Of a stretch of DNA of 64,000 nucleotides, positions 4,821 to 54,624 are shown one piece after another. Under the pieces are notes generated by a model. That model searched no databases. It saw nothing but the letters and a program-made list of their open reading frames with translations, and was not told where the DNA came from. Origin of the DNA: Escherichia coli. GTDB taxonomy: Bacteria > Pseudomonadota > Gammaproteobacteria > Enterobacterales > Enterobacteriaceae. Both the position numbers and the translations under genes were made by a program. Positions within the stretch are counted from its first letter, which is position 1. Each line of letters opens with the position of its first letter. The stretch lies in NCBI RefSeq assembly GCF_044324785.1, contig NZ_CP172127.1; one strand, 5' to 3'.

Positions 4821-5870
4821 ATGAAGGTTGATTCAATGGCCGATAACATCCCACAAGCTCCTCAAGGTGAGTTTGTTCTTTTCACCAGTGCTGATGGTCA
4901 AACCCGCGTTGAGTGTCGTTTTGAGTCTGACACCTTGTGGCTTTCTCAGGCTGCAATGGCAGAGCTTTATCAAGTTAGCTCTCAAGCAATCACCCAACAC
5001 GTAAAAGCTGTCTATTCTGAAGAAGAGCTTGAGCAAATTTCAACTTGTAAGGATTACTTACAAGTTCAACTGGAAGGTGGCAGAGAAGTAAAGCGAAGCA
5101 TTCGTCACTACAGTCTTCCGGTTATTCTTGCAGTAGGATACCGAGTTCGCTCAACACGTGGCACCCAGTTCCGCCAATGGGCAACCAGAATGTTGCAAGA
5201 ATACCTAATCAAAGGATTCGTCATGGATGACGAGCGCCTGAAAAATCCGCCCATTGGCCATTCTGCTGTGCCAGATTACTTTGATGAAATGCTGGAACGC
5301 ATTCGTGATATCCGAGCTAGTGAGCGTCGCGTTTATCTGCGAGTCAAAGAAATCTTTACCATGGCTGCTGATTACGAGCCATCTAACCAAGAGACCAACC
5401 GCTTCTTCCAAACCATTCAGAATAAGCTGCATTATGCTTGTACGCATATGACGGCTGCTGAGCTTATCGCCAGCCGTGTGGATGCCAGTAAGCCGGATAT
5501 GGGCTTAACCAGCTATAAAGGCGATGAAGTGCGCAAGACAGACGTTACTGTTGCCAAGAACTATTTGCGTGAAGACGAAATCAAAGAGCTTAATCGCATC
5601 GTCAATATGTGGCTCGACTTTGCTGAAGACCAAGCACTGCGTCGCAAGCAGGTATTTTTACAGGACTGGGCCGATAAGCTTGACCAGTTCTTGAGTTTTA
5701 ACGATAGAGATGTATTAAACGGTGCAGGAAAAATCTCCAAGAAAGACGCTGATGACAAAGCGAAATTGGAGTTTGACCGCTTTGCCCAGCAGCGCCGTCG
5801 TTTAAAAGAAGCCGAAGGCGCACGGGCCAATATCGCAGCCCTCAAGGCCATACTAAAAAAAGATAAATAG
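4821..5870 (+). CDS. RhuM-family protein (alternative start at ATG 4836)
   Basis: N-terminal segment LFTSADGQTRVECRFESDTLWLSQAAMAELYQVSSQAITQHVKAVY matches the RhuM family N-terminal region as I recall it; 20 bp downstream of the preceding gene, same strand. Confidence 0.55.
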   Translation: MKVDSMADNIPQAPQGEFVLFTSADGQTRVECRFESDTLWLSQAAMAELYQVSSQAITQHVKAVYSEEELEQISTCKDYLQVQLEGGREVKRSIRHYSLPVILAVGYRVRSTRGTQFRQWATRMLQEYLIKGFVMDDERLKNPPIGHSAVPDYFDEMLERIRDIRASERRVYLRVKEIFTMAADYEPSNQETNRFFQTIQNKLHYACTHMTAAELIASRVDASKPDMGLTSYKGDEVRKTDVTVAKNYLREDEIKELNRIVNMWLDFAEDQALRRKQVFLQDWADKLDQFLSFNDRDVLNGAGKISKKDADDKAKLEFDRFAQQRRRLKEAEGARANIAALKAILKKDK

Positions 5871-5927
5871 CCGATATAGTACAGCCCTGATCTCTAATGA
5901 GTTGAGGGCTGTGTTGTAAGATCATAA

Positions 5928-6604
5928 CTATAAAGGATTATCCATCTTAAAATCGTCGATATCGCCTGTCATTTTGAATAGATTGGTGTCATTCCAACGG
6001 CACAGTTGTCTAACCCGCATTAGATTTGAGTTGGCTCTGCGGATTATTGAGAAAGCATCTTCAACAGCAGTAATCACCGATTTTTCCCAATCTTGTGCTC
6101 GGGTAAAGGTGCTTTGTGAATAGCGATAATTGCCCTCACGGGGGAGGTAATGGCTGATCACCTGGTATTTGTCAGAATTCTTTTTAGGTTTAAACTCGTT
6201 GTAAACCCAGAAAATTTCGAGTTTTTTGTTTCTTTGCCTTACACGACAACCAAAATGACCTGGGTAGCCTTCAGAGTTTTTACCTCTATGTGCAACGTTG
6301 TTCAGCCAGAACAAGTCTGCAATTTTTTGTGCTATGTAGAAGTAGCGGAGCTGTTCTATTTCGGTTGATTTATGGGTGTAGTGTAGATATTGCTCTGATA
6401 TGGTTAAGGAAAAAGCATTGCGTCGTCTTGATTAACATTTGTGCTATTGACAATAAAGGTTTCCCAAATATTAATTTGTGTTTCTAGTCCTTTAAATGAT
6501 TTTGAGAAGGCTTCTATGTACTCAGATTGCGGTTGATTTCCCCCATTTAGTGCTGCACCAAATGTAGCTATCTGTTGTTCTAAAAATGAATGATTTTTGG
6601 TCAT
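5928..6604 (-). pseudogene. Hypothetical AT-rich gene, apparently frameshifted (66-aa frame 6404-6604 continuing in +1 frame to 5928)
   Basis: Good SD (AGAGGA) before ATG at 6604; second frame opens just before the first frame's stop and runs ~155 codons with no ATG (ORF track used TTG at 6314); abutted by the IS3-family TIR. Confidence 0.35.
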
Positions 6605-6664: not shown

Positions 6665-6712
6665 CCCCCTGTGTCAGCATAGTTGTCGCCTCAATTTTTT
6701 AAGGAGATAACA

Positions 6713-7225
6713 ATGCCAGGACAACCAATACCAAATGAGCTCAAAGAAAAAGGACTGATATGGCTTTTGCCACCATACTGTTGGTCACACCGTCAGATAG
6801 CCCGGAAGCTGAAGATCAGTGCCTCAGTTGTATCAAAATGGAGATGTGAGTTAGTGGAGCAAGGACTTTTACCTGAAAATGAAAAGATTACCTCCGTTGA
6901 TGTTGAAGACTGGACACCGGAGCGTCGATTCTCAGTTGTTCTTGAGACGGCTACGCTGTCAGAAATGGAACTTGCTGATTATTGCCGACGCATGGGATTG
7001 TTTGTTGAACAGGTTAAAGAATGGCGGGCTATCTCAATTCAGGCGCATGAAAAGAAATTGACGGAAAATATCCGAACAGACAGGGCATTGCGTGACGCAA
7101 AAAATAAGTTACGAGAACTGGAGAAAGAGCTTAAGCGCAAAGATAAAGCTCTGGCGGAAGCAGCTGCCCTGCTTATATTAAGGGAAAAGTTCAATGCCCT
7201 CTGGGACAACAGCGAGGAAGACTGA
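6713..7225 (+). CDS. IS3-family transposase OrfA (HTH plus leucine-zipper region)
   Basis: SD AAGGAG 6 nt before ATG 6713; C-terminal heptad-like LRELEKELKRKDKALAEAAALLILREKF. Confidence 0.6.
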   Translation: MPGQPIPNELKEKGLIWLLPPYCWSHRQIARKLKISASVVSKWRCELVEQGLLPENEKITSVDVEDWTPERRFSVVLETATLSEMELADYCRRMGLFVEQVKEWRAISIQAHEKKLTENIRTDRALRDAKNKLRELEKELKRKDKALAEAAALLILREKFNALWDNSEED

Positions 7226-42313: not shown

Positions 42314-43078
42314 ATGAAAATGAAGACATTACCCATCGTTCCATGGATTGGTGGCAAACGTCGCCTGGCAAAACACATCCTGCCGCTGTTTCCGGCGCAT
42401 GAATGTTATGTGGAGCCGTTTTGTGGGGCAGCAGCGCTCTATTTTCTTAAGACACCCGGCAAGATCGAAGTCATCAATGATATCAACGGTGAACTGGTGA
42501 ATCTGTACCGGGTGGTAAAGCATCACCTGGAAGAATTTGTCCGCCAGTTCAAATGGGCGCTGGTCAGCCGTCAGATCTACAAATGGCTGCAGATCACCCC
42601 GGAAGAAACACTGACGGATATCCAGCGTGCGGCACGGTTCTACTACCTTCAGAAGCAGGCGTTTGGCGGCAAGGTGGCAGAGCACAGCTTCGGTACCTCC
42701 ACCACATCCCCGCCACGCTTCAACCTGCTGCGTATTGAAGAAGAACTGTCAGCAGCACACCTGCGGCTTTCCAGAACAGTCATAGAACACATGGACTGGC
42801 AACAGTGCATTGAGCGTTATGATCGTCCGCACACACTGTTCTACTGCGACCCACCGTACCTGGGTACGGAAGGCTATGGTGTGGATTTTCCTGAAGGGAA
42901 CTACTCGCGGCTGGCAGAGCTGGCCCGGTGCATCAGAGGAAAAATGATAATTTCGGTGAACGATATCCCACAGATGCGCGAGGTGTTCACTGGACTGAAC
43001 ATACAGACAGTGAACATCAACTACAGTCTGGCGGGGAAATCTACGCCGCGCCGTGAACTGGTAATCTGCAACTTCTGA
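42314..43078 (+). CDS. DNA N6-adenine methyltransferase (Dam-like)
   Basis: N-terminal WIGGKRRLAKHILPLFP and catalytic DPPY motif (YCDPPYLG). Confidence 0.85.
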   Translation: MKMKTLPIVPWIGGKRRLAKHILPLFPAHECYVEPFCGAAALYFLKTPGKIEVINDINGELVNLYRVVKHHLEEFVRQFKWALVSRQIYKWLQITPEETLTDIQRAARFYYLQKQAFGGKVAEHSFGTSTTSPPRFNLLRIEEELSAAHLRLSRTVIEHMDWQQCIERYDRPHTLFYCDPPYLGTEGYGVDFPEGNYSRLAELARCIRGKMIISVNDIPQMREVFTGLNIQTVNINYSLAGKSTPRRELVICNF

Positions 43079-43557: not shown

Positions 43558-43586
43558 TTGACTGGTGAGGTAATCTGCACCATAAT
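43558..43586 (+). promoter_or_regulatory. Putative sigma70 early promoter with overlapping repressor operators
   Basis: -35 TTGACT (43558-43563), 17-bp spacer, -10 CATAAT (43581-43586); direct repeat TCTGCAC at 43543-43549 and 43574-43580. Confidence 0.4.
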
Positions 43587-48057: not shown

Positions 48058-48327
48058 ATGAAATCCACCACAGGTATCAACCAGCAAATCAGCAAAGTGC
48101 AGTCAGCCATTATGGCGCTTAAGGCGACGAACACGGATGTACAAAGCATCACCATCAGGGGTAACAAACCTGTCATCCGCGTTTCCCGGAGTGCGCATTG
48201 CATGCGCATGCTTGAGCAGGGAAAGGCCTGTTATCTGTATACCGGTCATGACCACAGGGGACATTTCCGTCAGGGCGTTTTCGAACTGCACGGCTGTCGC
48301 GTCGTGTGGCCGGAATCTTTGTGGTAA
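48058..48327 (+). CDS. Hypothetical early protein (89 aa)
   Basis: Coupled to B stop. Confidence 0.4.
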   Translation: MKSTTGINQQISKVQSAIMALKATNTDVQSITIRGNKPVIRVSRSAHCMRMLEQGKACYLYTGHDHRGHFRQGVFELHGCRVVWPESLW

Positions 48328-48354
48328 TCAGCACAACAGGAGGAGTCATAAAAT

Positions 48355-48885
48355 ATGGCAAAAAGTACAAAAGGGGCAAAACGTATCAAAGCCGCAGCAG
48401 CACTCTGGGTGCCGGGGACACGCGAAGAGGTCATTGAGGGAATCAGACTGCTTGGTGACGCGCAACGTGAACTGGTCAGGGCTGAAACAGAAATGAATGA
48501 CACCATTGGCGACATCACCGCACGTTATGCCCCGCTCACCGAGAGCCTGAAAAAACGCATGGCCGAACTGCAGTCCGGTATTCAGACATGGTGTGAGGCA
48601 CACCGTGATGAACTGACCGGCAACGGGAAGGTGAAGTTCGCTAACCTCACCACCGGCGAGGTGCAGTGGCGAAACCGTCCGCCGTCAGTCAGTATCCGTG
48701 GGGCGGATAATGTTATTGAATTACTGAGACGTCTGGGGCTTGAGCGCTTTATCCGTGTAAAGGAGGAAATAAATAAAGACGCCATCCTGAATGAAAAGGA
48801 CGCCGTGAAAAATATTCCCGGTATTACCATAAAAAGTGATATTGAGGATTTTTCAATAATTCCTTTTGAGCAGAATGTGCAGTAA
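48355..48885 (+). CDS. gam: Host-nuclease inhibitor Gam
   Basis: 176 aa closely matching Mu Gam along its length (AKRIKAAAALWVP...IGDAQRE...ETEMND...WCEAHRDELT...IRVKEEINKDAIL...DFSIIPFEQ). Confidence 0.85.
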   Translation: MAKSTKGAKRIKAAAALWVPGTREEVIEGIRLLGDAQRELVRAETEMNDTIGDITARYAPLTESLKKRMAELQSGIQTWCEAHRDELTGNGKVKFANLTTGEVQWRNRPPSVSIRGADNVIELLRRLGLERFIRVKEEINKDAILNEKDAVKNIPGITIKSDIEDFSIIPFEQNVQ

Positions 48886-48981
48886 AAACAGCATATAAGC
48901 TATTTAAAACAGCCTTTTCTTTTTTATTCCGGCATCAGCGCCGTGGGCTTCTGCACGCCGGAAACAGAGGAGAATTAAATC

Positions 48982-49176
48982 ATGATATTTAAATGTATTC
49001 AGTGCGAGAGGGATATAACAGCCCTGCGTTTTCACAGCGCCATCGCCGTGATGTCCGGTAAGTACCACGTACCTGCAGTACGCGTCACCCTGGTCTGTCC
49101 GTACTGCAGTCAGCATTTTTCGGCAGACGTGCCCGTCATGGAATTCTCCCGCCCTGACAGGGAGGACTCGCAATGA
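48982..49176 (+). CDS. Small zinc-ribbon protein (64 aa)
   Basis: Two CxxC pairs (CIQC ... CPYC). Confidence 0.4.
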   Translation: MIFKCIQCERDITALRFHSAIAVMSGKYHVPAVRVTLVCPYCSQHFSADVPVMEFSRPDREDSQ

Positions 49177-49445
49177 TTACCCCACAGGAAGCACGACAGC
49201 GCACCCGAACCCTTGTTGAACACTATGTCAACGAGTGTGAATGCCGCGACCTCACCGATGTGAAGCACGTCCTGACGGCGCTAATCAGCATGACCGCTCA
49301 GGCCATTGTGGCGACCAACGGAAAGGCGGCTGCCCTGCAGGTACTGGTGAACACACTCACCCACACGGCAGAGCACGATGTGCCGTACCGGATGGAAACC
49401 ACTGCAGAAGGCGGCCTGAACATCACCGTCGACCGGAAACACTGA
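49173..49445 (+). CDS. Hypothetical early protein (90 aa)
   Basis: Coupled ORF. Confidence 0.4.
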   Translation: MITPQEARQRTRTLVEHYVNECECRDLTDVKHVLTALISMTAQAIVATNGKAAALQVLVNTLTHTAEHDVPYRMETTAEGGLNITVDRKH

Positions 49446-49454
49446 GGGCGCGGC

Positions 49455-49760
49455 ATGACACGGAACACCGAACTCACCCGCACCGCCCTCTACCGTCTGG
49501 CCCTGCAGCGTTTCGGGCCGGACGCACAGGCCCTGAAACTGACAGAAGAGGCCGCTGAACTGGCGGCCAGTGCCGCCCGCAACCTGAACGGACAGGGCAG
49601 CGAAAGTGACCTCGCGGCAGAGCTGGCAGACGTGGAAATCATGACAGAGCAGCTGCGCCTTCAGGGAATGGACCGGCTGATTGACTTCCACAAACAGAAA
49701 AAACTGGAACGCCTTGCCGCACGGCTGGGCGTCATGTACACCGGAGATACTGAACAATGA
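49455..49760 (+). CDS. Small MazG-like nucleotide pyrophosphohydrolase-type protein (tentative)
   Basis: 101 aa helical protein with EEAAELAA...AELADVEIM pattern reminiscent of MazG-type NTP-PPase. Confidence 0.4.
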   Translation: MTRNTELTRTALYRLALQRFGPDAQALKLTEEAAELAASAARNLNGQGSESDLAAELADVEIMTEQLRLQGMDRLIDFHKQKKLERLAARLGVMYTGDTEQ

Positions 49761-50440
49761 CAGACCAGGATAAACACATTGAGAAACTGAAAAAGTTGCT
49801 GGCGCTGGCCGCATCCGGCAACCCTCACGAGGCCGCTCTGGCACTGCGCCGTGCCCGTAAACTGATGGATGTTCACGGCATCACACATTCCGACATCGCC
49901 ATGAGTGATATTGATGAAACCATCAGTCACTACTGGCCGACAGGCAGCCTCCGTCCACCGCGCTACATGCTGGGCCTGATGAACATCATCCGCGAGGCAT
50001 TTGGTGTTAACTCCATCATTCACCCCGGCACATATCCGGGTGTGGGGTTCTACGGCAACCGGGAACGGGCTGCACTGGCTGCGTACACCTGGGAAGTGCT
50101 GGCCCGCCAGCTGAAAAAGGCGCGTCAGCAATATATCAGCGCACAGAACAAAAGAATAAAAACTGCCACCCGTACCAGCCGTGGTGACCAGTTTGCTGAA
50201 GGCTGGGTGCTGGCCGTTATCAGTGAAATACAGTCCTTCGCCCTGACCGATGACGAACGTGAACTGATGCAGCAGTGGCTGGAACATAAATACCCGCAGA
50301 CGCAAACCACCAGGGCGCGTAAACCGGGAAGAAGCCGCAATGGCGACGCCTCGCGCTATGCGGGGTTTCTTGAAGGGCAGAACGTCAGACTGCACCGCCC
50401 GGTCAGTGGGCAGGAACAACAGAAACTGGAGGCCAGATGA
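49757..50440 (+). CDS. Hypothetical early protein (227 aa), DUF2786-like N-terminus
   Basis: N-terminal IEKLKKLLALAASGNPHEAALALRRARKLM pattern. Confidence 0.45.
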   Translation: MTDQDKHIEKLKKLLALAASGNPHEAALALRRARKLMDVHGITHSDIAMSDIDETISHYWPTGSLRPPRYMLGLMNIIREAFGVNSIIHPGTYPGVGFYGNRERAALAAYTWEVLARQLKKARQQYISAQNKRIKTATRTSRGDQFAEGWVLAVISEIQSFALTDDERELMQQWLEHKYPQTQTTRARKPGRSRNGDASRYAGFLEGQNVRLHRPVSGQEQQKLEAR

Positions 50441-50667
50441 TTACGCTATCAGGTAAAAGCCGGAAATTAAAAGCCTGCCGAATATCTGCCAGATACCTTT
50501 TTGCCCGCGCCTTTTTTAAGAACGTCAGGCCGGGGATCACAATTGGTGTTATTGCCGGACGCGAACAGGTTGAAAAATACATGTCAGGTGCATGGTGGAA
50601 TAACGACCCTGTCATTGCTGCCCGTAATATTCATATCAGTTGGGGGGATATTCAGAATGACGGCTGA
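50437..50667 (+). CDS. Hypothetical small protein (76 aa)
   Basis: Coupled ORF. Confidence 0.3.
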   Translation: MITLSGKSRKLKACRISARYLFARAFFKNVRPGITIGVIAGREQVEKYMSGAWWNNDPVIAARNIHISWGDIQNDG

Positions 50668-50872
50668 ATCTGTTGTATGTGCCCTGTTCTGGTATTGTTT
50701 TGTCGGTTGGTGTACTGCTGAACTGCACCGCCGTTCAGGGTTTTATTCACGTTACAGTGGTGCTGGCTACTGGATTAGCTGGTCGGTGATGTTCCTGTGC
50801 TGGCCTGTGGCGCTTCCTTTATATGTCGATTATATCGGTGGCGCAGGTAAAAGGAGCAACGATGATGACTAA
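50664..50872 (+). CDS. Small membrane protein (2 TM)
   Basis: VVCALFWYCFVGWC and WSVMFLCWPVALPLYV hydrophobic segments. Confidence 0.35.
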
Positions 50873-51314
50873 ACAACGTCTTATCCAGCTCATTCATATT
50901 GCCCGTAATGAACTGGGTATGGATGAAGACACCTACCGCCAGATGTTACAGGGGCTGACCGGTAAAGCCTCAACCAAAGGAATGGATACCACACAACTAA
51001 ACTGCGTGCTGGAATCCATGAAAAGGAAAGGCTTTCGCGTTAAGCCTGCCGGAAAAGCCAGCTCCGGTTTACCGCTGGATAACCATCCGCAGTCCAGGAA
51101 AATCCGTGCGCTATGGCTTGAAATGGCTGCTGCCGGCATTGTTCGTGACCGTTCAGAAAATGCATTAGCGCGGTGGATCAAGCGGGAAACGGGCATCAGC
51201 GCCCTGCGCTGGCTCAGTACTGAACAGGCAAGCAGTGTTATTGAGAAACTGAAGAAGTGGCAGCGCAGAGCTGCGGGAGTCAAACATGAGCGACCTGAAT
51301 CAGTTTCGAAGTAA
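50862..51314 (+). CDS. gemA: GemA-like regulatory protein (Mu gp16 family)
   Basis: SD AGGAG before ATG; position immediately before Mor; size ~150 aa. Confidence 0.6.
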   Translation: MMTKQRLIQLIHIARNELGMDEDTYRQMLQGLTGKASTKGMDTTQLNCVLESMKRKGFRVKPAGKASSGLPLDNHPQSRKIRALWLEMAAAGIVRDRSENALARWIKRETGISALRWLSTEQASSVIEKLKKWQRRAAGVKHERPESVSK

Positions 51315-51684
51315 AGGGCCGGAACTCCTGGTGGAGCTGGCACAGCATACCTCTGAGACCGTTCGCGAGATTATTGATATTGAGCCCGCAATTGCCGACC
51401 AGATTGGTCAGGCCGTCGCGAACCGAATGATGCAGGTCTGGGGCGGGCAAAACGTTTATTTCCCGATGGGCATGGTATGGAAGGTCAGTCAGCGCGACCG
51501 GGAAATCTTCAGGGAGTTTAACGGACGCAACCACCACGAACTGGCCCGCAAGTTTGGTGTTTCGCTTCAGTGGGTCTACAGCGTGGTTAAGCGGGTCAGA
51601 AAAGAAGAACTGGATCGGATGCAGGGCAGGTTGTTTGATGAAGATCTGCCAGAGGAGACGAAAGACGTTAACAAATCCAGATAA
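51286..51684 (+). CDS. mor: Mor-like middle-operon transcriptional activator
   Basis: C-terminal ...VYFPMG...REIFREFNGRNHHELARKFGVSLQWVYSVVKR matches the Mor/C family HTH. Confidence 0.7.
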   Translation: MSDLNQFRSKGPELLVELAQHTSETVREIIDIEPAIADQIGQAVANRMMQVWGGQNVYFPMGMVWKVSQRDREIFREFNGRNHHELARKFGVSLQWVYSVVKRVRKEELDRMQGRLFDEDLPEETKDVNKSR

Positions 51685-51730
51685 TTCCTGCTTGTTAAAG
51701 TCCTTTCAAAAATCTCCTTATTGTATAAAA

Positions 51731-51760
51731 GCACGGTAGACCCCTTACCGTGCTTTTTTT
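51731..51760 (+). terminator. Rho-independent terminator after mor
   Basis: Perfect 8-bp stem GCACGGTA/TACCGTGC, 7-nt loop, followed by TTTTTTT (51754-51760). Confidence 0.65.
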
Positions 51761-51798: not shown

Positions 51799-52431
51799 AT
51801 GTTTGACGTTTCGTTGTTAAATCTGCCATGGGCAACACTGGTGACCCTGACCAGTGGCTATATTGGGTATTTTATTGCGAATGTGGGACTGAAGGATCAC
51901 CACAAGCCCATTGAGGTGACTTTTTCTTCGCTGATTTTTGGCCTGACAGCAATGATGGCTTACCAGGCTGTTATGTGGGCAGGTCTGAATGCCTGGCTGG
52001 CAACACCACCAGCACTTCTGTGTGCCGTTACATGCGGTGCGTGGTGGCGCAGGTACGGTCGCAAATGGATGTACAGATTACTGTGGAATAATGATATTTC
52101 ATGGTCTGACGATACCAGCTCAGCATGGCAGGCAATGTTTGATCAAACAGGCTTCAGCGTTACCGAGGTCAGAGTGATTCTTCGCGATGGTTCCGGTATG
52201 ATGTCACGGCTGCCAGGGAACTTTGAAGAGTGGCCTAACGGTCCGTTTACCCTGGGGAATAAAGGCGATATGGTTCTTTACGTCACGCACAGCAGCCCTT
52301 CAGGCAGTAACGAATGGGAAGAGTATAAAGGCGTGGTTGATAAGTACTGGGGAGCTCTGGCAACCTATATTCCAGCAGATCAGATTGCCAGAGTGGAGAT
52401 CAGGCGCGTTCGTGCAACGAACGATGAATGA
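51799..52431 (+). CDS. Membrane-anchored protein (211 aa), candidate moron / superinfection-exclusion factor
   Basis: Own SD (GGGAGA) after the mor terminator; N-terminal TM helices (WATLVTLTSGYIGYFIANVGL, FSSLIFGLTAMMAYQAVMWAGL) plus soluble C-terminal domain; last gene before the prophage right end. Confidence 0.55.
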   Translation: MFDVSLLNLPWATLVTLTSGYIGYFIANVGLKDHHKPIEVTFSSLIFGLTAMMAYQAVMWAGLNAWLATPPALLCAVTCGAWWRRYGRKWMYRLLWNNDISWSDDTSSAWQAMFDQTGFSVTEVRVILRDGSGMMSRLPGNFEEWPNGPFTLGNKGDMVLYVTHSSPSGSNEWEEYKGVVDKYWGALATYIPADQIARVEIRRVRATNDE

Positions 52432-52744
52432 TGTTTATTTTTTCCCTGGGGCAGGGGCTGCCGGCATAGTGGTTTTATTGGCAGAGGAAGACGATTCTCC
52501 TTTTCTACCGGAATCGCGCTCGAACGTCACGATGTGCTTGCTTTTGGGCTTTTCTGAGTAATCCAGGCTATCATGCTTATTGTTTTGAGTAGTCATTGGA
52601 ATCATCCTTTTTGTTGCGGGTCATGTTTCAGCAAACTCGATTCTAAGTTGCCAGGAAGGATGATTTCAATGCCCGACTTATCTATCGTATAGCGGAAAAG
52701 AATTTCAGTTCTGTTCACCAGAACCCATGTTAACCCACTCCAAT

Positions 52745-52792
52745 TCGTTATTTATCTCACGGATCCCCCTTCATTTATCTCATGTCTGATCA
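52745..52792. repeat. Prophage right terminus with two putative transposase-binding motifs (inverted relative to left end)
   Basis: Reverse complement reads TGATCAGACATGAGATAAATGAAGGGGGATCCGTGAGATAAATAACG; motifs at + 52772-52779 and 52749-52756. Confidence 0.6.
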
Positions 52793-53245
52793 GTTCCCGC
52801 CCTGCGGCAGGCTAAACCACGCCATGCCGTCGTGGTGCATCCCGGCCTGCGCCGCCTGTTCTTCCGTGGTGTTGCTACCGTCGGTTTTAAAAACCGGCAG
52901 ATTTCCGGCAATCCCGGTGGCGTCGCCCCATTTGTAGAAGGGCTTCGCGATGTATCCTTCCGGCACGATAACGGTATCTTCCGTGGAAACCGGCAGGCTG
53001 GTGAAACCGAGCGTCGTCGCTTTGCCGAGGTTACCGCTTGCTTTGGAGACCACTTTCGCCAGCGCGTTTTCCTGTTTCAGCAGAAATGGGAACGCTGCCG
53101 CGGCACCGGCGACCGTGCCTGCCTGTAACAGACGGCGGCGTGACAAATAGACTTCCGCCACCTGCGAAAACGCGCGGTTATCGCTCGGGTTACTGATTTC
53201 TTCACTATGCTCACGTTTGAATAAAGTTTTTAACGGTCTGCCCAT
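52793..53245 (-). pseudogene. phoX: PhoX-family secreted phosphatase gene, 5' part (Tat signal), separated from its 3' part by the prophage
   Basis: Twin-arginine motif SRRRLLQAGTVAGAAAAFPF; frame terminated by TGA supplied by the prophage terminal TGATCA. Confidence 0.65.

Positions 53246-53887: not shown

Positions 53888-54624
<737 letters not shown>

Follow-up and report, generated by a model that had tools for sequence, protein, structure and literature searches.

Positions 48058-50872 of the window (the whole 64,000-nt stretch of Escherichia coli DNA that was analysed, from contig NZ_CP172127.1 of assembly GCF_044324785.1) hold nothing out of the ordinary: eight early genes, closely packed, of a prophage that is common in E. 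coli. One of these genes encodes a 101-aa protein that is a "hypothetical protein" in most records and that, judged from its profile matches and its intact active-site motif, belongs to the all-alpha (MazG-like) NTP pyrophosphohydrolase superfamily. Taken as a whole, the explanation that we hold to be quite probable is that an early operon supplies Gam, a catalytically active MazG-like enzyme and a zinc-ribbon partner of that enzyme. The lead that emerges is a MazG-like gene that is among the most persistently retained accessory genes of the early operon across diverged transposable phages and that recurs in coupling or fusion with a zinc ribbon.

Eight early genes of a BcepMu-like prophage

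The 2,815-bp segment is filled by eight ORFs on the + strand; where a genome is identical over this length, its RefSeq (PGAP) annotation shows these eight CDSs with matching coordinates. These ORFs and the elements that bear on their expression are:

43558-43586, + strand: candidate early promoter, sigma-70-like TTGACT-17-CATAAT (consensus scan, 10 of 12 matches)
48058-48327, + strand: HI_1482-family ORF, 89 aa (phrog_2041, E 1e-36; PGAP "HI_1482 family protein")
48355-48885, + strand: Gam, 176 aa (PF07352 Phage_Mu_Gam, E 7.8e-41; phrog_491, E 3.6e-73)
48982-49176, + strand: putative zinc-ribbon protein, 64 aa (phrog_3401, E 2.3e-40, full length; C5xxC8...C39PxC42)
49173-49445, + strand: 90-aa ORF (phrog_3691, E 2e-54)
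49455-49760, + strand: predicted MazG-like all-alpha NTP pyrophosphohydrolase, 101 aa (phrog_2245, acidic motif)
49757-50440, + strand: DUF2786 and DUF7168 protein, 227 aa (both Pfam domains above cut-off)
50437-50667, + strand: 76-aa ORF (phrog_3681, E 2.1e-54)
50657-50872, + strand: small membrane protein, 71 aa (phrog_6436, E 2.4e-14; PGAP CDS)
50865-51314, + strand: gemA (PF06252 GemA, E 1.3e-40), which closes the early operon together with mor
51286-51684, + strand: mor (PF08765 Mor, E 1.1e-43)
51727-51757, + strand: terminator-like hairpin with a T run after its 13-bp stem (consensus scan), 43 nt past the mor stop

Only 2 nt separate the stop codon of B from the ATG at 48058. ATGA stop/start overlaps occur at 49173, 49757 and 50437, the 76-aa and 71-aa ORFs overlap by 11 nt at 50657, and the 71-aa ORF overlaps gemA by 8 nt at 50865; the coupling of several small ORFs, remarked on in a preliminary description of this DNA, is read directly from the sequence. 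The largest gap, of 96 nt, lies between gam and the zinc-ribbon gene, whose ATG is preceded by a GAGGAG ribosome-binding site. Each of the eight ORFs has a PHROG match (E 2e-14 to 9e-76) and, in at least one divergence tier, a dN/dS of 0.06-0.3. All eight are real genes under purifying selection. Absence of the ORFs from every relative, which would have spoken against the preliminary description, is not what we find: PHROG families, related viral loci and dN/dS all point to conservation.

The element to which these genes belong is an intact BcepMu-like (Bcepmuvirus) transposable prophage of E. coli. The segment is flanked by an rve (DDE) transposase A and an AAA+ B protein (AAA_22 domain), and Gam, GemA and Mor lie in the same early arm. 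Up to window position 52792 (...TCTGATCA), the right end is identical in three genomes, yet it borders yehQ in one, gspL in another and a third locus in the last, so that one and the same end is found at different chromosomal sites. Among 5,426 complete E. coli genomes, 639 (about 12%) carry this stretch, and the nearest isolate is Escherichia phage PhiKM (PQ738613), a Bcepmuvirus with 96% identity over 94% of the stretch. The segment had been placed between B/gam and gemA/mor of a transposable phage, and both the placement and the transposable nature are borne out by Pfam domains and RefSeq annotation. Two points needed amendment: the phage type is BcepMu-like and not Mu itself, and the genes are not all "beyond gam", as the range starts with the HI_1482-family ORF upstream of gam and takes in gam itself.

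The semi-essential early region of Mu (kil-gam-...-gemA-mor), which is dispensable, occupies the same position between B and gemA/mor and likewise combines Gam, GemA and Mor homologues with small accessory genes. Counterparts in Mu were found only for Gam, GemA and Mor. Unlike Mu, the BcepMu-like prophage carries its late genes on the opposite strand, and its early arm reads out to the prophage end. Among 80 related viral loci with a MazG-like gene, GemA lies downstream in 78 and Mor in 75, the misses including loci that end before that point.

The order of genes, namely a divergent repressor gene, a ner-like gene, two small genes, A, B, the eight genes described here, gemA and mor, suggests that 48058-50872 forms the middle of the early (lytic) operon, whose genes share one strand and are for the most part coupled in translation. 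The candidate promoter lies 48 nt upstream of the ner-like gene and faces the divergent repressor gene. It is put forward for its position, because the regional total of such sites is no more than expected by chance; for the same reason we claim no internal promoter. The hairpin past mor is the probable end of the early transcript. Orientation, coupling, candidate promoter and terminator together suggest that the genes are probably expressed jointly upon release from the repressor. No Rfam RNA family was matched in the 43-53 kb region, and a repeat search of the region returned short chance repeats only.

Comparison with relatives shows a conserved backbone interrupted by exchangeable slots. 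The backbone is made up of a gene of the HI_1482 type, followed by either Gam or DUF3164, then the genes for the zinc ribbon, the MazG-like protein and the small membrane protein, and finally gemA and mor. Exchangeable are the 90-aa ORF, the gene for the DUF2786 protein and the 76-aa ORF, and as many as two further genes can follow the MazG-like gene. Klebsiella phage KP12 (OM835952) preserves the order of the HI_1482-like, zinc-ribbon, MazG-like, 76-aa and 71-aa ORFs and of gemA and mor; it differs in carrying DUF3164 in place of Gam, no 90-aa ORF, and an unrelated 128-aa ORF where DUF2786 would be. In PhiKM one more membrane ORF, of 71 aa, comes between the genes for the MazG-like and DUF2786 proteins.

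Gam and the small accessory proteins

The 89-aa HI_1482-family ORF lies directly 3' of the gene for transposition protein B and has a dN/dS of 0.16. A similar ORF follows B in relatives where B was detected, down to 29% identity, and none of the Pfam, NCBIfam and PDB profile searches gave a match for it. The next protein falls squarely into the Mu Gam family (PF07352, 139.9 bits against a cut-off of 28.3, covering profile positions 1-148 of 149) and evolves slowly (dN/dS 0.06-0.11). By homology it is a host-nuclease inhibitor and DNA-end-binding protein, which, like Mu Gam, would bind double-strand DNA ends and shield them from host exonucleases. In many relatives the gam slot is occupied by a DUF3164 protein instead.

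Only in this lineage does the 90-aa ORF stand as an insertion between the zinc-ribbon and MazG-like genes. It occurs in the E. coli group and at a few further loci, and KP12 and most others lack it; its dN/dS is 0.29 in the diverged tier, and neither Pfam nor the PDB profile search matched it. The 227-aa protein contains, in this order, DUF2786 (PF10979, residues 8-44, 43.0 bits against a cut-off of 23.9) and DUF7168 (PF23771, residues 46-189, 91.5 bits against 25.5). A literature search on DUF2786 returned passing mentions only and no functional study. The 76-aa ORF has a dN/dS of 0.16 in the diverged tier, and its KP12 homologue is noted in that record as corresponding to S. Typhi STY1594. 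In the 71-aa protein two hydrophobic segments, at about residues 5-21 and 38-56, can be read by eye from the sequence; it has 25 distinct homologues down to 39% identity and a dN/dS of 0.14-0.20. NCBIfam gave nothing above cut-off for any ORF without an assigned function.

A MazG-like protein with a conserved acidic motif

The 101-aa protein matches PHROG 2245, "nucleoside triphosphate pyrophosphohydrolase" (E 3.8e-34), and newer RefSeq (PGAP) annotations already name it an NTP pyrophosphohydrolase. Its metal motif is intact: E31-E32-A-A-E35 is followed after 20 residues by E56-L-A-D59, and these acidic residues are the predicted metal ligands. In alignments of 19 and 83 sequences E31, E32, E35, E56 and D59 are invariant or at least 90% conserved, and the basic residues K83 and R86 are also invariant or nearly so. 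The family is very large (10,582 representatives), and E[ED]xx[ED]...ExxD is kept in 136 of the 140 best-scoring representatives that were checked. A site in which four acidic residues hold Mg is known in Mtb MazG and C. jejuni dUTPase (PMC10014863).

Similarity to solved structures emerges at the level of the family. With the single sequence, a PDB search returned only spurious helical matches such as IWS1, and a shallow 19-sequence profile reached 5ie9 at E 0.43 only. The deeper 83-sequence profile was needed to match 5ie9 at E 0.006, with 2q73/2q5z, 2gta and 1vmg following at E 0.04 to 0.4, although the top PDB match of this profile is 3zta, an unrelated helical protein. In the 83-sequence profile the motif residues align onto EExxE and ExxD of 5ie9. 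Among the same 83 relatives, PF03819 (MazG) is matched at E < 0.01 by 23, PF12643 by 4 and PF01503 by 3. The 101-aa protein itself stays under every Pfam and NCBIfam cut-off (PRA-PH 14.9 bits against 21.3; TIGR03188 E 0.034). The predicted all-helical model superimposes on solved MazG-like members; the AF2 monomer consists of two long helices and not of a closed four-helix bundle, and the top Foldseek matches are DCTPP1 and iMazG, with non-significant E-values (at least 0.16). As fold and motif agree and no Pfam or NCBIfam threshold is passed, we regard the protein as a member of the superfamily and not of a curated family. The MazG-like assignment made in the preliminary description has thus survived profile search. 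By tblastn against phage and plasmid collections, the protein was found in four enterobacterial phage records, all of the same prophage lineage, and not in Mu.

Solved enzymes of the MazG type include SSO3215 of S. solfataricus (1vmg), a Bacillus MazG (5ie9), B. subtilis YpjD (2gta), integron iMazG (2q5z/2q73), HisE (1yvw) and DCTPP1/RS21-C6. In contrast to these, to which it is only marginally similar, the 101-aa protein lies below Pfam cut-offs in a large uncharacterised subfamily of its own, and it is encoded in the early operon of a transposable phage, linked to a zinc-ribbon gene. By analogy with the solved relatives, it would be a single-domain enzyme in which two long helices carry E31/E32/E35 and E56/D59, these residues holding Mg2+ or Mn2+ and directing cleavage of the alpha-beta phosphoanhydride (NTP to NMP and PPi), and oligomerisation would complete the helical bundle. 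The invariance or near-invariance of the catalytic acidic residues across so large a family argues that catalysis has been retained, and we predict that the protein is active and acts on the nucleotide pool early in lytic growth.

A zinc ribbon coupled to the MazG-like gene in relatives

The CxxC...CxxC zinc ribbon of the preliminary description holds up well: C5, C8, C39 and C42 of the 64-aa protein are invariant across 12 homologues, down to 24% identity, and the gene has a dN/dS of 0.11. Members of the family match generic zinc-ribbon Pfam families weakly (best Zn_ribbon_4, 1.3e-5) and no specific Pfam family above cut-off. On the strength of its two conserved CxxC knuckles, we class the protein as a generic C4 zinc ribbon.

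A modest addition of the present analysis is that many relatives couple the zinc-ribbon gene translationally to the MazG-like gene and that some distant members have the two modules fused. In KP12, and in many other loci down to 52% MazG identity, the stop codon of the zinc-ribbon gene overlaps the start codon of the MazG-like gene. Of 53 long members of the MazG-like family, 9 have at least two CxxC motifs, and 8 of these have a Cys-rich module next to the MazG-like domain, in an extension of the N- or C-terminus. An apparent zinc-ribbon-MazG fusion, P0037, was set aside: it comes from raw-read assemblies, has a frameshifted C-terminus and matches the overlapping stop/start of KP12. In the segment described here a 90-aa gene sits between the two genes; the most diverged group of transposable phages (44-51% identity) does not show the pairing, and no zinc ribbon adjoins the MazG-like gene of a distant family member on one very short contig. 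From the conserved translational coupling and the independent Cys-rich fusions to the same domain elsewhere, we consider it most likely that the zinc ribbon acts as a binding partner of the MazG-like enzyme, or as its specificity or regulatory subunit. The fusions may be coincidental, since zinc ribbons are common fusion partners.

Possible roles of the MazG-like protein

Three phage enzymes, Atd1 of Pectobacterium phage PcCB7V, cyanophage S-PM2 MazG and S-2L MazZ (7ody, which is among the Foldseek matches of the 101-aa protein), likewise consist of a small phage-borne MazG-type catalytic domain expressed during infection, although none has a detectable close sequence relationship to the 101-aa protein. 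Their substrates differ, being (p)ppGpp, dGTP/dCTP and (d)GTP, respectively, and this bars the transfer of function from them. A zinc-ribbon partner is not reported for Atd1 (10.1101/2022.06.09.495361) or for cyanophage MazG (PMC6850273).

One may tentatively propose, as a reading with appreciable odds that nevertheless stay below even, that the enzyme cleans up or rebalances the dNTPs (acting on dUTP, on oxidised or other non-canonical dNTPs, or on surplus canonical ones) during replicative transposition. House-cleaning is the commonest role documented for the superfamily (PMC10014863, PMC3855555); a small MazG-like, PRA-PH-type protein of an E. coli plasmid functionally replaces Dut (10.1101/2020.05.25.114553), and cyanophage MazG prefers dGTP and dCTP (PMC6850273). 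The gene is also among the most widely retained of the early region in the related transposable phages examined. Against this, tblastn of the plasmid collection revealed no detectable similarity to the Dut-replacing protein, the benefit is unclear in a host that already has Dut, MutT and its own MazG, and the substrate pocket is not readable from the model. A dUTPase-like cleaner would explain how phages of this group protect their replicating DNA. We know of no Dut gene in phages of the BcepMu-like group.

It is also possible, if rather unlikely, that the enzyme, perhaps guided by the zinc ribbon, breaks down a host nucleotide of the stress or immune response, such as (p)ppGpp or a different signal of the triphosphate type, and so keeps the induced cell alive and permissive, in the way proposed for Atd1. 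The gene has an intact catalytic motif and is placed in the early operon amid variable accessory genes. The preliminary description had implicated MazG-like genes in counteracting nucleotide-based host responses, and the literature divides on this: the single-domain phage protein Atd1 hydrolyses ppGpp, depletes (p)ppGpp and protects against TIR-STING toxicity (10.1101/2022.06.09.495361), whereas cyanophage MazG leaves (p)ppGpp untouched (PMC6850273). Moreover, none of the four related phage records found by tblastn is from a Pectobacterium phage, and PADLOC matched none of the eight ORFs to a defence or anti-defence model. To our knowledge, MazG chemistry is also unable to cleave cyclic-oligonucleotide signals, which counts against such a role. 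Should the pair indeed clear a nucleotide of stress or immunity signalling from the cell, the known phage counter-defences would gain a small module that is very widespread. The remainder of the odds, after pool cleaning and the removal of stress or immune nucleotides, goes to roles that are neither.

One may speculate about a two-part module in which the ribbon targets or regulates the pyrophosphohydrolase and which transposable phages, and phages carrying the fusions, deploy early in infection to remove a specific host nucleotide signal or a toxic nucleotide. We consider this doubtful; if true, the module would be an unrecognised, widespread counter-defence or pool-editing device and not a generic house-cleaning enzyme.

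Improbable in our view is that the 101-aa protein is mainly a binding or regulatory protein, like the dimeric all-alpha dUTPases in pathogenicity-island derepression, with the zinc ribbon an unrelated neighbouring DNA- or RNA-binding regulator. Zinc-ribbon proteins of transposable phages can be regulators, as is Mu Com, which favours this reading, but neither Com nor P2 Ogr/Delta was matched in Pfam by the zinc-ribbon protein and its 11 homologues at E up to 0.05-0.1. The 90-aa gene parting the two ORFs here is in keeping with such independence, and all-alpha dUTPases do moonlight as signalling proteins (PMC5608427).

Finally, that the small ORFs are chance reading frames or decaying remnants of a defective prophage, as the shortness of several (64-90 aa, with no Pfam family) and the omission of the zinc-ribbon ORF from the PhiKM record might suggest, is already contradicted by end-to-end PHROG matches for all ORFs, dN/dS far under 1, conserved stop/start coupling and the sharp prophage end at differing insertion sites in different genomes. 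The zinc-ribbon ORF of PhiKM is intact and merely unannotated, and a conserved 64-aa ORF is thus missing from at least one GenBank phage record.

Genomic setting of the accessory segment

Positions 48058 to 50872 of the window are occupied by eight tightly packed ORFs:

48058-48327, + strand, HI_1482 family protein, 89 aa
48355-48885, + strand, Gam, 176 aa
48982-49176, + strand, zinc ribbon protein, 64 aa
49173-49445, + strand, ORF without assigned function, 90 aa
49455-49760, + strand, MazG-like protein, 101 aa
49757-50440, + strand, DUF2786 and DUF7168 protein, 227 aa
50437-50667, + strand, ORF without assigned function, 76 aa
50657-50872, + strand, probable small membrane protein, 71 aa

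The preliminary description had announced several small coupled genes "beyond gam". Accessory genes are indeed present, but the range begins upstream of gam and contains it. The coupling itself is confirmed by the sequence, with ATGA overlaps at 49173, 49757 and 50437, an overlap of 11 nt at 50657 and one of 8 nt with gemA at 50865; the stop codon of the B gene is followed after two bases by the ATG of the first ORF (48058). The same eight CDSs appear in the RefSeq annotation of E. coli genomes that are identical across this segment, and all eight match PHROG families (E 2e-14 to 9e-76), in most cases across the full length. When 80 related viral loci, Escherichia phage PhiKM (PQ738613) and Klebsiella phage KP12 (OM835952) were compared with the window, each ORF gave a dN/dS of 0.06-0.3 in one or more divergence tiers, close to the values for B, GemA and Mor. 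Rfam, a repeat search and a promoter scan gave nothing further within 48058-50872.

The segment is 96% identical to PhiKM, which is classified in Bcepmuvirus, and it is present in 639 of 5,426 complete E. coli genomes; as an accessory region there is nothing unusual about it, and its prophage is very common. On the upstream side are a divergent HTH repressor gene, a ner-like gene and the genes for an rve-type transposase A and the AAA+ B protein, and on the downstream side those for GemA and Mor. The right end of the prophage is sharp, at window position 52792 (...TCTGATCA), and in three genomes an identical right-end sequence (CATGTCTGATCA) adjoins a different host locus each time (window 52400-52850 and two related loci, L001 10343-10793 and L084 17946-18396): yehQ, gspL and, in the window, a third site. 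One end joined to different host sites is as expected of a transposable phage, and the shared end is evidence of active, near-random transposition. Taken together, gene context and the sharp prophage end identify 48058-50872 as the accessory genes in the middle of the early operon. On the host side the window has a minus-strand ORF (52790-53245) with a twin-arginine-like signal; it extends into the phage end and looks truncated. Just past the prophage, at 53888-54603, are short broken ORFs, IS3-family transposase-like by eye, that look like a degraded insertion sequence.

Judging from gene order and a candidate promoter at 43558-43586, which by itself is no better than chance, the segment presumably stays silent during lysogeny and is expressed once the prophage is induced. 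A strong terminator-like hairpin followed by a T run lies at 51727-51757, 43 nt after mor. Behind it is a 210-aa ORF (51799-52431, PGAP start), hydrophobic by eye, with no Pfam, NCBIfam or PADLOC match; only some relatives carry a close copy. It may be cargo at the end of the prophage, with expression of its own. We also noted a DNA adenine methylase gene (42314-43078) immediately beyond the repressor gene, placed between opposite-strand lysis/late genes and the immunity region.

Identity of the MazG-like protein

The 101-aa protein is outside every curated family model. Its best Pfam score, 14.9 bits to PRA-PH, fell short of the cut-off of 21.3 bits, NCBIfam gave TIGR03188 at E 0.034, and a PDB search with the single sequence produced no real match. 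The protein does match phrog_2245, "nucleoside triphosphate pyrophosphohydrolase" (E 3.8e-34), a name that newer PGAP runs also give it; current RefSeq annotation already names the gene correctly. An exhaustive profile search (E up to 1e-3) placed it in a family of 10,582 cluster representatives, mostly of 90-100 aa. Among 83 members scanned, Pfam recognised MazG in 23, MazG-like in 4 and PRA-PH in 3, and a profile built from these 83 sequences matched the solved MazG-type enzymes 5ie9 (E 0.006, the only one below E 0.01), 2q73/2q5z (iMazG), 2gta (YpjD) and 1vmg.

In both alignments, E31-E32-x-x-E35 and, 20 residues further on, E56-x-x-D59 are invariant or nearly so, and they align with the equivalent residues of 5ie9; the motif is intact in 136 of the 140 best-scoring representatives of the 10,582. 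It is predicted to be the Mg2+ site of four acidic residues that has been described for M. tuberculosis MazG and C. jejuni dUTPase (PMC10014863). Two conserved residues of the last helix, K83 and R86, could serve the phosphates, we infer. As independent lines of evidence, the PHROG and PGAP names, the family, the structure-profile matches and the motif thus place the protein in the superfamily with high confidence, with a functional-looking active site, despite the sub-threshold curated models, and the MazG-like assignment survives profile search. In some members of the family (P0052, P0059) the domain is tandemly duplicated in a single chain, an arrangement reminiscent of E. coli MazG with its two domains.

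A possible role on induction

On induction, the early transcript would supply transposase, B, Gam and a pyrophosphohydrolase together. Gam would, by homology, protect DNA ends, and the MazG-like protein would act as a small Mg2+-dependent pyrophosphohydrolase, converting some nucleoside triphosphate to NMP and PPi. The substrates of its characterised relatives diverge: a cyanophage MazG acts on dGTP and dCTP and has no (p)ppGpp activity (PMC6850273), a plasmid MazG-like protein in E. coli acts on dUTP (10.1101/2020.05.25.114553), and Atd1 acts on (p)ppGpp and protects from TIR-STING toxicity (10.1101/2022.06.09.495361). Against this background we regard cleaning of the dNTP pool as a tentative reading, well short of an even chance, and an alarmone or counter-defence role as rather unlikely; some other role takes up the remaining probability. 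The earlier observation is confirmed, and its interpretation is supported at the level of identity.

The zinc ribbon and its association with the MazG-like gene

The CxxC...CxxC ribbon proposed earlier was recovered as CxxC...CPxC, and its four cysteines are all invariant across 12 homologues with identities as low as 24%. Members match several generic zinc-ribbon models weakly, and none matched Com or Ogr/Delta. In KP12 and many viral loci the zinc-ribbon gene lies directly 5' of the MazG-like gene and its stop overlaps the MazG-like start, an arrangement that reaches down to 52% MazG identity; the 90-aa ORF separating the two in the window is a lineage-specific insertion. In the wider MazG-like family, 9 of 53 long members carry at least two CxxC motifs, and in eight of these nine the cysteine-rich module is part of an extension that flanks the MazG-like domain on its N- or C-terminal side; one is a textbook ribbon.

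It is plausible that the ribbon is a functional partner of the MazG-like enzyme. We put it no higher because the most diverged transposable-phage group among the compared loci is without the ribbon, as is the neighbourhood of a distant family member on the one unrelated contig read; because zinc ribbons are promiscuous fusion partners; and because an apparent fusion, P0037, proved to be an assembly or frameshift artefact. The association is a new point, and a modest addition.

Many of the database "homologues" are frameshifted zinc-ribbon or MazG-like versions from raw-read assemblies (P0037, P0193, P0195, P0196, P0198 and P0200), which mimic fusions and cysteine loss and are unfit as evidence. 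The PhiKM GenBank record (locus L002) carries a minus-strand "hypothetical protein" at 5839-6120 and leaves unannotated a zinc-ribbon ORF of 64 aa on the + strand (5926-6120), which is intact and differs from that of the window by one substitution.

Backbone and exchangeable slots

The segment combines a conserved backbone with slots whose genes can be exchanged. In relatives with a detected B, the HI_1482-like ORF comes after it; Pfam, NCBIfam and PDB profile searches detected no relatives of known function for it. Gam is unambiguous (PF07352, 139.9 bits), and in many relatives its slot is filled by a DUF3164 protein (about 203 aa in the related locus L003, 4104-4715; PF11363, E 3e-80), so that this position seems to take either the one or the other. 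Searches with the 90-aa and 76-aa ORFs gave no functional assignment, and PADLOC returned no defence model for any of the eight. The 71-aa ORF, in which two hydrophobic segments can be read, probably encodes a small membrane protein.

The junction between the MazG-like and DUF2786 genes (window 49740-49760) is a further, variable slot. It holds two genes in the related locus L009 (3185-3776), a 127-aa ORF and the membrane ORF; in PhiKM (6690-6925) it holds the membrane ORF alone, of 71 aa; in the window it is empty. There, the MazG-like protein ends in TGDTEQ, six residues that are the tail of the ORF now missing, and hence a deletion of about 226 bp at a short homology gave this protein its chimeric C-terminus.
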